DNA from: a virus
Taxonomy: Duplodnaviria; Caudoviricetes
DNA length: 64,000 nucleotides
Strand: one strand, 5' to 3'
IMG/VR virus record: IMGVR_UViG_3300025809_001850
Part shown: positions 33,775 through 62,019 of the stretch, in pieces
How positions within the stretch are numbered: the first letter of the stretch is position 1
Layout: every line of letters begins with the position of its first letter
Translations under genes and position numbers: made by a program
Notes under the pieces: generated by a model
The model's input: the letters and a program-made list of their open reading frames with translations, nothing else
Told to the model about the DNA's origin: nothing
Database searches by the model: none

Positions 33775-33804
33775 AAGGGGGTAATTTTTTTACCCTCTTT
33801 TTTT
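33775..33804 (+). terminator. intrinsic terminator
   Basis: AAGGGGGTAA / TTACCCTCTT 10-bp stem followed by a T run. Confidence 0.8.
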
Positions 33805-33871
33805 ATAATTATATTATATTTATAGTCATTGAAGACATCACATAAAATGGAACTTGGGGATATATATTAAT

Positions 33872-34966
33872 ATGAAGGTATTTACTGCAATCATAGGAGG
33901 ACTTGCACTGGCAGTAGCAGGAACTGCAGCTTTCTTTTCGGTACGAGGTATTGGTTTATTGTTTGCAGGAGCAGCCATTGCCGTTATGATAATGGCGGGT
34001 GTTCTTGAGGCAGGTAAACTTGCTATGACTTCTTTTTTATATCGTTATTGGGAACGAATTCCGAGATTGTTAAAATGGTACTGCACGATTGCAGTTGTGG
34101 TTTTAATTGGAATAACGTCACTTGGTATTTATGGATTTTTGAGTGATGCATACGATGACACTCGTTCAAGGGTGGAAATGCACGAAAGCAACATTGAAAC
34201 TTTAAACAAAGAAATTGTTGTTATTGAAACTGAGATTAAAACCTTAAAGAACACAGATATCACAGTCGAGGGTAAGAAAACAGAAACAATCGCAGGTTTT
34301 CAAAAAATCTACGATGATTATGTTAGTGATAGAAGAAACAGACAAGAAGCTTTATCTTCACGGAACAAAGGTGATGCAGAAGTAAGAGCTAATCGTAGAC
34401 AACAATTACTTGATCGTCTTTCAACATTAGACTCTTCAAAAACTGCAATAGAGTCTAAGGGTGGTGGGTTATTTTCAAGTAACAAAAAGAAAATAGAAGA
34501 ATTAAAAGTTGCTCAACAACCAGAACGAGATTCCATTGCGTCTTCACTATCATCAATTTCAGAAGAAGAAAGTTCCGCAACAAAATCATACAATTCTGCA
34601 CTTACAAAGATAGATGACGAGATTGCAACAGAATACGATAAATTTGTGGAAAAGGTAAATGGACTTCGTGATACAACAAATGATTTAGATAATGTATCTG
34701 TTATTGAAGACAAATATACCAAGATAAAATCAAATCAAGCAGATATACTTGTAGAAAAAGAAGGAATTCGTGCAACGGATATAGGAAGTTTTCGTTTTAT
34801 TGCAGAATCATTTAATATGCCAGTTGATCAAGTTGTTAAGTGGTTTATTATTGTGATCGTTTTAGTATTCGACCCGGTGGCAGTTGCACTTGTGTTAGCA
34901 TATAACATTATGGTAGGTGGAAAAATGACTCTGGGAGAAGAGTTACCGAAAAAAAAAATTGGATAG
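33872..34966 (+). CDS. multi-pass membrane protein with long coiled coil
   Basis: Three N-terminal hydrophobic segments, coiled coil, C-terminal [20 protein letters not shown]; ends just after an A10 run. Confidence 0.85.
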
Positions 34967-35562
34967 ATAAGTTACCATTCACCGACAAGTTACAAACAGA
35001 CGGTGACTTTGACGAAGAACAGGATGTTATATCAGAAACCCCAACTCCGTCTCCAACTCCAACTGAGACTCCGACTCCCGAGGAAACTCCCACACCAACT
35101 CCGTCACCAACTCCGTCACCAACTCCGTCTCCAACGGAGACTCCGACTCCTGAGGAAACTCCCACACCAACTCCCACACCAACTCCGTCACCAACTCCGT
35201 CTCCAACGGAGACTCCGACTCCTGAGGAAACTCCCACACCAACTCCGTCTCCAACGGAGACTCCGACTCCTGAGGAAACTCCCACACCAACTCCGTCACC
35301 AACTCCGTCTCCAACGGAGACTCCGACTCCGTCTCACATTCCAAGTTTGAAACCAACATCCCAAGAAGATGAAAATGTTATGTCAACACCGATGTATAAC
35401 ACAGATGACCCAAATATAGCAGGACCTTACTATGTTCCGTGGAAAAAAACATCAATGGAGGCACATGACAAATATTTTGCAAAGAAGATATATAGAAAAA
35501 ATTCAGGTGAATATATACCTGATAGCACTCTCGGAAATGTACCTACTAATAATGACGAATAA
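34951..35562 (+). CDS. start-less -1-frame extension encoding a Pro/Thr/Glu-repeat tail (putative frameshift product of 33872-34966)
   Basis: Frame open 34906-35562 with no ATG/GTG/TTG before 35347; [45 protein letters not shown]...NNDE. Confidence 0.65.
35035..35333 (+). repeat. tandem coding repeat (ETPTP/SPTP units)
   Basis: Repeated CCAACTCCGTCTCCAACGGAGACTCCGACTCCTGAGGAAACTCCCACA (48 bp) with 12-bp CCAACTCCGTCA subunits. Confidence 0.95.
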
Positions 35563-35627: not shown

Positions 35628-35891
35628 ATGTACATTAACATATATTTAGTTTTTTCTGCCATACTTCTGTTCATTATATTAATTTATATAATAGTAAATT
35701 TGTATAAAAAAAATTCAACATACGAAAATTGGGTATACGAATTAAACGAATCGTTGTCCGACGTTTTACGCAATTGGAATACAATTGACTCCAAGCAGAT
35801 GTTTGAAAAAGATGACGAAGTTGGTGTAGTGTATGAAGGAATTGATGATATCATGAAAGACATAGAAACAAGGACAACCAAAAATGGCTAA
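35628..35891 (+). CDS. small membrane-anchored hypothetical protein
   Basis: N-terminal hydrophobic helix IYLVFSAILLFIILIYIIV. Confidence 0.75.
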   Translation: MYINIYLVFSAILLFIILIYIIVNLYKKNSTYENWVYELNESLSDVLRNWNTIDSKQMFEKDDEVGVVYEGIDDIMKDIETRTTKNG

Positions 35892-36660
35892 CAAACAGAA
35901 ACAAACAGAAACCAAACCAGCAGAGGTTACGGAAGTTAAACGGGTAATAAAACGCAGACGCAGAAAAAAAGGCAAAGGTAAGCAATACTTCACACAAGAA
36001 ACTGAAGATGCAATTGTAGAATACAATGGTTCTGAAGATGTAAAGATTAGAAATGATATATACAACGAACGAATACGATACGCATTTGATAAACTAGCCG
36101 AAAACATTTTAAACACATTTAAATTTTCTTATTTTCAGTGTAGTCACGAAGAAGTACAACAAGAGGTTGTCAGCAACTTGGTTGGCAACATACACAAATA
36201 CAAACAACAAAACGGAAAGGCCTTTTCATACTTTTCAATTATAGCAAAAAATTTCCTAATTTTATACAACAACGGAAACTATAAAAAATTCAAAAGACAC
36301 ATGAGTGTGGACGATGATGAAATTGTATATGAACGAAAAGAATTAACAGTAAATCCAAAAAATGAAGTCAAACTGAAAGAGATAAATGAATTCATCAGAT
36401 TAATGATAGAGTATTATGACACAAATCTGGAAAATATGTTTAAGAAACCACAAGAGTTAAAAATAGCAGCTGCAGTTGTAGAAATATTTAGACGATGTGA
36501 TTCAATTGAAAACTTCAATAAAAAGGCAATATATTTGTATATTCGTGAAATGACAGATTGTAAAACTCAAAACATTACAAAGGTTGTAAATAAAATGCGT
36601 GATGTGCAAAAGACTATAACAAAGTCTTATTTTAAAAACGGATACATTGATAAGAACTGA
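35884..36660 (+). CDS. phage sigma factor, T4 gp55-like (late transcription)
   Basis: YFTQETEDAIVEY, KLAENI, region-2-like NGKAFSYFSIIAKN; sits directly upstream of the structural module. Confidence 0.7.
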   Translation: MANKQKQTETKPAEVTEVKRVIKRRRRKKGKGKQYFTQETEDAIVEYNGSEDVKIRNDIYNERIRYAFDKLAENILNTFKFSYFQCSHEEVQQEVVSNLVGNIHKYKQQNGKAFSYFSIIAKNFLILYNNGNYKKFKRHMSVDDDEIVYERKELTVNPKNEVKLKEINEFIRLMIEYYDTNLENMFKKPQELKIAAAVVEIFRRCDSIENFNKKAIYLYIREMTDCKTQNITKVVNKMRDVQKTITKSYFKNGYIDKN

Positions 36661-61967: not shown

Positions 61968-62019
61968 ACTTTTTTTTTAATATTTATTAACATACAAACC
62001 TTAAATTGGAGATTTAACT

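Follow-up and report, generated by a model that had tools for sequence, protein, structure and literature searches.

This article concerns a gene for a polytopic membrane protein in a stretch of 64,000 nucleotides (nt) of viral DNA, called here the window, which corresponds to positions 22466-86465 of the genome contig G000:C1 (IMG/VR record IMGVR_UViG_3300025809_001850); unless another contig is named, the coordinates below are those of the stretch. The gene ends just after a run of ten A's (A10), which is not a chance feature, and we showed by comparison with its relatives that the run is neither an assembly error nor a fresh mutation and that the protein tail encoded behind it in the -1 frame is under purifying selection. 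Programmed recoding at the run is very probable, and the fuller reading, that of one gene with a programmed recoding site from which two isoforms are made, mainly through slippage of RNA polymerase with addition of one A, stands at somewhat better than an even chance. A first, sequence-only reading of the window had proposed that only a -1 shift at the A10 gives access to a Pro/Thr-rich tail, with a short and a long isoform as the outcome, and this proposal is strongly supported by the comparative evidence: an invariant A10, a conserved -1 peptide, a switch of the selected frame, purifying selection on the tail and no fused form.

The open reading frame (ORF) of the membrane protein extends from 33854 to 34966 on the plus strand, as are all the features of the gene given here, and on re-reading the sequence its 3' end, CCG AAA AAA AAA ATT GGA TAG, and the position of the A10 (34949..34958) agreed base for base with the sequence-only reading. 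The ORF listing extends to TTG 33854, and ATG 33872 is the probable real start since close homologues begin with MK(V/L/I)F; the short-isoform gene in frame 0 thus covers 33872..34966 and encodes 364 amino acids (aa) with the C-terminus ...LPKKKIG. In frame 0 the run provides Lys-Lys-Lys and the first base of ATT, with an in-phase A_AAA_AAA inside, and two codons past it stands the stop TAG that ends the short isoform (34964..34966), which is TAG in all loci of the clade described below. The -1 frame was said to be open from 34906 to 35562 with no start before 35347, and we found just this, the first ATG, GTG or TTG being TTG 35347 and the first ATG lying at 35380. After a shift at the run the sequence would continue as ...LPKKK-NWIDK..., so that the junction peptide LPKKKNWIDK is correct as a predicted sequence, and the product would have about 563 residues (362 + 201). 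The acidic linker, the approximately 100 aa of ETPTP/SPTP repeats and the C-terminal domain of approximately 70 aa that had been read from this frame correspond to a conserved acidic segment made of the first 26 post-slip codons (34957..35034), which overlaps the frame-0 stop, to a Pro/Thr(/Glu/Ser) repeat linker of 108 aa of the ETPTP/SPTP type (35035..35358), and to a conserved C-terminal tail module of 67 aa (35359..35559), which includes DENVxSTPMY. The stop TAA of the -1 frame, at 35560..35562, ends the long isoform. The length and the repeat unit of the linker vary widely in relatives; in the window, Tandem Repeats Finder gives periods of 12-72 nt, the 72-nt unit having 94% matches.

Conservation of the run and selection on the -1 frame

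Eighty related loci were fetched from IMG/VR, and the 34 that form the clade of the window's gene, with 64-93% protein identity, were analysed. Exactly ten A's were found in 34/34 of them, within the pattern CC(G/C)-A10-(T/C)TGG(A/G)-TAG, while the flanking synonymous sites vary, and the -1 frame is open for 150-365 codons in every clade locus whose contig continues. Whether homologues keep the split at the same place had been raised as a check by the sequence-only reading: it is kept in all 34, and no fused form was found. Neither A11 in the DNA nor an unsplit homologue within the clade, the two observations that this reading had named as contrary to it, was encountered at the contig level. 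Exact-pattern scans of IMG/VR retrieved A10 in 39 contigs, A11 in 0 and A9 in 0, and among metagenome contigs a search with run lengths of A9 to A11 permitted gave 44 stretches, of which about 32 are family members, all with A10, the A9 and A11 hits being unrelated DNA. Because a Sanger-era AACY contig is among these metagenome A10 loci, a platform-specific homopolymer error is excluded.

The protein databases give the same picture of the short form. A search of 5.8 billion proteins returned more than 2,791 homologues of the membrane protein, almost all of them from viral or metagenome contigs; the close ones (65-92% identity, 359-379 aa) end with PKKK(I/T)G at one common column, and none of them is longer than 379 aa, though fused forms of up to 648 aa fell within the length window of the search. 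The A10 is also the sole run of at least ten A's in the 151.8-kb genome, in which runs of at least nine A's are about 8-fold depleted (2 observed versus about 16 expected from p(A|AAA)); such runs therefore appear costly in this genome. As for runs of T, the only T11 (G000:C1:117373-117383) follows a GC-rich hairpin, faces an A8 and looks like a bidirectional intrinsic terminator, and a T9 at 61970 lies just past the stop of a gene of 1368 aa.

Downstream of the run, the -1 products can be aligned in all loci, starting with the first post-run codon, as NW(I/V)D(N/D)LPF(A/T)(D/E)..Q..G(D/E)F (e.g., NWIDNLPFAD...), and this segment is followed by a Pro/Thr linker of about 55 to 190 aa among relatives and then by the conserved tail, whose alignment has 14 invariant columns and the invariant positions N, T, GPY.VPWK, M, Y, S and GN. 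The column entropies of the three codon positions are 0.08/0.06/0.74 in frame 0 over the 150 nt upstream of the run and 0.34/0.24/0.73 in the -1 frame over the 66 nt downstream of it; since the wobble pattern moves to the -1 frame, selection changes frame exactly at the run. The ratio of nonsynonymous to synonymous substitution rates (dN/dS) has a median of 0.30 in the tail and of 0.17 in its core block, against values above 1.7 in the other two frames of the same DNA, which shows purifying selection on the tail. When 1.84 billion representative proteins were searched exhaustively with a profile of the tail, the only matches were 18 proteins of 37-251 aa, all of which look like pieces of this same ORF cut out by gene callers; no long in-frame fusion was among them, and the tail was seen in no other context. 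A tblastn search for the tail in cultured phages gave no match.

The model of the tail by AlphaFold2 (AF2) has a mean confidence (pLDDT) of 56; instead of folding into a domain, the 67-aa module probably offers short linear binding motifs on a flexible stalk. In the conserved post-slip segment there is neither a signal peptide nor a Cys. An overlapped two-component spanin of the Rz/Rz1 type was considered for this arrangement and rejected, as the overlap has no start codon, no lipobox Cys and no signal peptide. In two loci (L033:5111-5982 and L034:5114-6180), an additional module of about 120 aa rich in Cys and Trp (...ICVSKT..WQGKPAWVKRCEGSCSDEY..WHK...) is inserted after the post-slip segment and before the Pro/Thr linker, and the recoded tail can therefore accept additional domains. 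At another (L026:5102-5502), the -1 tail shifts frame inside the Pro/Thr repeat and ends early, without the C-terminal module, its sister L027 being intact; the break would be due to misassembly of the repeat or else to a natural truncation.

Proposed recoding route and rival explanations

Several explanations that do without recoding have to be weighed against this evidence. The least probable of them is a decaying gene with a recent frameshift mutation, or an error of sequencing or assembly in the homopolymer: miscalled homopolymers and frameshift pseudogenes are common in metagenome assemblies, and L026 does have a frame break in its Pro/Thr repeat, but the A10 is identical down to 64% identity, in many independent assemblies and in the Sanger-era contig, and the tail behind it is under purifying selection. 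Hardly more credible is the phase-variable switch that the sequence-only reading had entertained, in which slippage during replication would toggle A10 and A11 within phage populations, so that a given genome would encode one form or the other, short or long. A homopolymer this long is hypermutable in replication, yet A9 and A11 are absent from the 39 IMG/VR contigs and from the approximately 32 metagenome family loci (these being consensus contigs, in which minority alleles could be hidden), and no in-frame fused protein exists in any database searched; the switch is unlikely because no assembled contig has an A9 or A11 allele. Marginally better placed, and still highly improbable, is a tail made as a separate, unfused product, whose translation would either start internally, e.g., on TTG 35347 or on the Met of STPMY, or restart past the TAG. 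Gene callers predict ORFs of 51-93 aa from that Met, several of the profile matches start at position 12, and the Pro/Thr repeats are open in several frames anyway. Against such a product, the 20-26 codons right after the run are conserved with the wobble of the -1 frame, the first canonical start codon lies 300-600 nt past the run in most loci, and in 10 loci a stop of the -1 frame stands just 10-16 nt upstream of the run, the frame opening there without a start codon; translation therefore has no means of starting separately on the conserved post-slip segment. Moreover, the internal Met is replaced by Leu in several loci (STPLY/STPLH).

In the mechanism that we propose, standard decoding would give an inner-membrane protein of 364 aa ending with LPKKKIG, and a fraction of the expression events would shift to the -1 frame within the A10, giving a protein of about 563 aa with the acidic segment, the variable Pro/Thr linker and the 67-aa tail. 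RNA polymerase would add one A in part of the transcripts, and the resulting A11 mRNA would then be translated normally; ribosomal -1 shifting or sliding on A_AAA_AAA may contribute too, and A9 transcripts would yield a third, trivial product ending with ...KKKLDR. By analogy with the tssM1 gene discussed below, the share of the long isoform would perhaps be 10-30%.

Polymerase and ribosome are difficult to separate here, because the product is identical whether the polymerase adds one A or the ribosome slips to -1, and the sequence alone cannot decide the route. As the main one we favour the polymerase, with substantial weight left to the ribosome, because no conserved RNA structure flanks the site. 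Downstream of the run, the alignment of relatives gives a consensus fold of -1.7 kcal/mol with essentially no covariation; upstream, no hairpin or other structure is conserved in an alignment of 24 references (two disregarded). The weak stem pointed out by the sequence-only reading, TCACCG/CGGTGA, is present with 6 bp, but the fold is no better than that of shuffled sequences (z = -0.14) and, as the stem is not conserved in relatives, it is not a stimulator. The site also has the features expected of transcriptional slippage, namely an A/T run of about nine or more at the junction and purifying selection on both frames with the split conserved, and the three separate slip clades of the family, described further on, all have at least nine A's, none being a bare heptamer. 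The 8-fold depletion of such runs in the genome and the slippage of polymerase on the A11 of tssM1 (PMC4256274) speak for the same route.

It is possible but rather unlikely that the mRNA is uniformly A10 and that the same two isoforms come mainly from ribosomes which slide on A_AAA_AAA or undergo programmed -1 frameshifting there. An X_XXY_YYZ heptamer is in phase in all three slip clades, which in the window is A_AAA_AAA, but this is not discriminating since it is automatic in any run of at least nine A's. On the side of the ribosome, the second slip clade (L068, L069 and L071) has A_AAA_AAG, the exact heptamer of Escherichia coli dnaX, the frame-0 stop lies 0-2 codons past the site in all three clades, and sliding of ribosomes on lysine-coding poly-A is documented (PMC4363877). 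On the other side are the lack of a conserved downstream stem-loop or pseudoknot, the sizes of the family's sites, all of 9-10 A's, and the patchy occurrence of an upstream element resembling a Shine-Dalgarno (SD) sequence, a GGAG 15 nt upstream of the run in the close subclade that is absent from the 65% subclade.

Apart from this documented sliding of ribosomes, several points limit the case for slippage by the polymerase or for the recoding scheme as a whole. Any run of at least nine A's holds the in-phase A_AAA_AAA as well, and the second clade has the dnaX heptamer, so that the length of the runs does not speak for the polymerase only. The ten A's could partly reflect coding constraint, with Lys-Lys-Lys in frame 0 and Asn in frame -1, and the Pro/Thr repeats have no stops in several frames, so that the openness of the linker proves little in itself. 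Four metatranscriptome runs gave contigs of 139-267 nt which end at or before 34910, none of them crossing the run. Finally, a search of the genome for a phage-type RNA polymerase (PF00940) gave no match, and the control genomes likewise gave none; use of the host RNA polymerase is inferred solely from the myovirus type of the phage.

Poly-A recoding is itself well documented. Ribosomes that read E. coli dnaX undergo programmed -1 frameshifting on A_AAA_AAG, which has an SD-like element upstream of it and a stem-loop downstream, and in Thermus thermophilus dnaX transcriptional slippage occurs on A9. These genes resemble the present one by their A-runs in lysine codons and by their two products with a common N-terminus, which here are predicted, and the clade of L068 shares the A_AAA_AAG; they differ in that the shifted product of dnaX is the shorter one and in that E. 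coli dnaX needs conserved flanking stimulators, of which our search found none here. The nearest precedent is tssM1 of Citrobacter rodentium, in which transcriptional slippage on A11 gives about 20-25% of frameshifted product (Gueguen et al. 2014, PMC4256274). There, as in tssM of Yersinia pseudotuberculosis (type VI secretion system T6SS-3) and in the present gene, a poly-A closely precedes the stop of a gene for an inner-membrane protein, whose C-terminal part lies in another frame, and each gene has, or in the present case would have, two length variants without a known stimulatory structure. The differences are that tssM has an A11 and uses the +1 frame, with unsplit orthologues as the rule, whereas here the run is A10, the shift would lead to the -1 frame and the split is fixed over a clade of 64-93% identity; the present gene also belongs to a phage, and its slip is predicted from sequence.

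Runs of A/T make bacterial RNA polymerases slip once they reach a length of about nine, and on such runs Shigella spa13 makes 25-30% of extended product by polymerase slippage, which also operates in mxiE and other type III secretion genes; in the IS630 element of Roseiflexus, slippage is stimulated by a hairpin of the nascent RNA (PMC5009743). Spa13, mxiE and the IS elements are thus alike to the route favoured here in the productive slippage of bacterial RNA polymerase on at least nine A/T; the gene families are unrelated, and the hairpin stimulator of the Roseiflexus element has no conserved counterpart here. The classical -1 frameshifts of phages, the lambda G/GT tail-assembly chaperone and T7 gene 10A/10B (PMC5009743), share with the scheme proposed here a phage setting, a minor isoform extended at the C-terminus, made in their case in a fixed ratio, and a -1 shift near the end of the ORF. 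They are ribosomal, however, use heptamers of the G_GGA_AAG type and concern genes for virion assembly or capsid, whereas here the site is an A10 in a gene for a polytopic membrane protein, outside the chaperone/tape-measure position.

Protein architecture, family evolution and genome context

The AF2 model of the short form (pLDDT 82) has helices at residues 71-201, 210-306 and 324-354. In this model two N-terminal transmembrane (TM) helices are followed by TM3, which runs on into a helix of 130 residues, and by a turn at the conserved GGGLFS, after which come return helices, a short amphipathic helix, TM4 and the C-terminal tail, the coiled-coil hairpin comprising about 230 aa. The Lys+Arg counts in the alignment are 1.9 for the N-terminus, 4.9 for the TM2-TM3 loop, 4.3 for the C-terminal tail and 0.9 for the TM1-TM2 loop; the positive-inside rule would place the acidic coiled-coil hairpin in the periplasm and, in the cytoplasm, the N-terminus, the loop between TM2 and TM3 and the tail with its extension.

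Database comparisons were little informative about function. Pfam gave no match for either the short form or the tail, PHROGs gave weak coiled-coil or low-complexity matches and nothing specific, the ESM Atlas gave clusters of viral 'hypothetical protein' and nothing else, and Foldseek with the short-form model gave generic matches of the coiled-coil or ABC-exporter type, none with E <= 0.001. Among the cultured relatives, the gene of Flavobacterium phage immuto lies near a holin and a chitinase and that of Mosig near a glucosaminidase; two other metagenomic relatives, and the window itself, have unrelated neighbourhoods, synteny not being conserved in the family. As the neighbourhoods differ across the family, we do not claim a role in lysis by synteny. 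Our working model, which is speculative, is a membrane anchor whose minor long form would present binding motifs on a spacer and thereby tether a partner to the membrane.

Within the family, the layout of an A-run and a -1 tail is found outside the window's clade as well. The loci L068, L069 and L071 end with ATA AAA AAA AAG TAA (A9), and the 137-140 codons open in their -1 frame specify an acidic segment and a Pro/Thr/Val linker, with an end that is conserved; two of the three loci of this second slip clade are distinct, and the relatives nearest to it (39-42% identity) lack the run and have short tails in frame. The locus L079 ends with TTA AAA AAA AAT TAA (A9), with a -1 frame of 92 codons. 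Other clades carry in-frame tails, made of a repeat linker such as EKIVEVEKPVEV and a short terminal motif such as RGLFSF, and among cultured relatives immuto gp85 and Mosig gp157 end in charged tails that are in frame, their genes having no A-run. A quick maximum-likelihood tree of 75 rows requires three changes of the slip label, and in it the window's clade of 35 rows forms one group with full support; because the tree is unrooted and has long branches, gains are indistinguishable from losses. The A9/A10 layout with a -1 tail was therefore needed at least three times on the family tree, whether it arose or was kept.

Some further observations concern the tails of relatives. In L036-L039 and L054-L066 the in-frame tails consist of repeats of the (E/D)K(I/P)VEV type and end with RG(L/M)FSF, at the very C-terminus, or with YWK(K/Q)R..., and L038 has an in-frame A9 (CAT AAA AAA AAA GTA), from which slippage is expected to give truncated forms. 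The relatives L040, L044 and L045, which looked 'short', were considered as carriers of split tails and rejected, their downstream ORFs being unrelated enzymes.

The genome itself is a single viral contig of 151.8 kb with 35% G+C, which carries baseplate-wedge and tail-fibre genes and five tRNA genes, with an Hsp20 gene just upstream of the membrane-protein gene. The best cultured matches of the baseplate wedge and of a 258-aa protein encoded downstream of the recoded gene are in Flavobacterium phage immuto and Microcystis phage Mel-JY01, with equally good matches in a metagenomic phage of 484 kb; from its structural genes and its closest phages, the genome is therefore that of a large marine myovirus, for which 'T4-like' holds only loosely. 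Its record is classed 'provirus', with an estimated completeness of 75%, although the sequence forms a single contig in which structural genes of a myovirus, tRNA genes and DNA-modification genes abound, and no host flanks were seen in the window.

Between the Hsp20 gene and the membrane-protein gene, a terminator-like hairpin with a T-run (33775-33799) stands 3' of hsp20 and is followed by an AT-rich stretch with promoter-like hexamers and a ATATTTAT motif (33775-33850 for the whole region), and the membrane-protein gene therefore probably has its own promoter. Directly 3' of the recoded tail (35628-35891, +) is the gene of an 87-aa protein with one N-terminal TM helix and a weak, sub-threshold Tetraspanin match. 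The gene of the 258-aa protein follows (35884-36660, +); this protein has a very basic N-terminus and 40-44% identity to its matches in immuto, Mel-JY01 and the 484-kb metagenomic phage, and it has no Pfam, PHROG or PDB match, although it looks similar to a late sigma factor of the T4 gp55 type. In another phage (L086), a family member shares its stretch with a gene of 244 aa that gives a faint Sigma70_r2 match.

Meaning for marine phages

While poly-A recoding is itself known, it is undescribed for this gene family in the literature that we found, our search having returned no paper on the family or on the site. Gene callers give a 364-aa protein and an orphan fragment here, and none of the protein databases searched therefore holds the predicted isoform of about 560 aa, which is conserved in an abundant marine phage group. 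The site is also a deeply conserved case of probable poly-A recoding in a phage with double-stranded DNA, beyond the usual examples of tail chaperones and capsids. To our knowledge almost nothing is known of the relative parts of polymerase and ribosome slippage in marine bacteria, and the gene offers a clean natural system in which to measure them.

It may be, doubtful as this is, that the functional point of this widespread family of phage membrane proteins is the ratio of short to long form set by the poly-A itself, the pair acting as a dosage-controlled tether or a timing device whose ratio could respond, through polymerase slippage, to the state of the infected cell. The layout is needed at least three times on the family tree, and other members have equivalent tails of linker and motif in frame. 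If true, such a ratio would fit, e.g., a regulator of lysis or of assembly, with a logic like that of holin/antiholin isoform pairs. At the level of the family, the finding of the layout at least three times suggests that lysine-rich stop-transfer sequences coded by AAA are a recurrent starting point for recoding sites.

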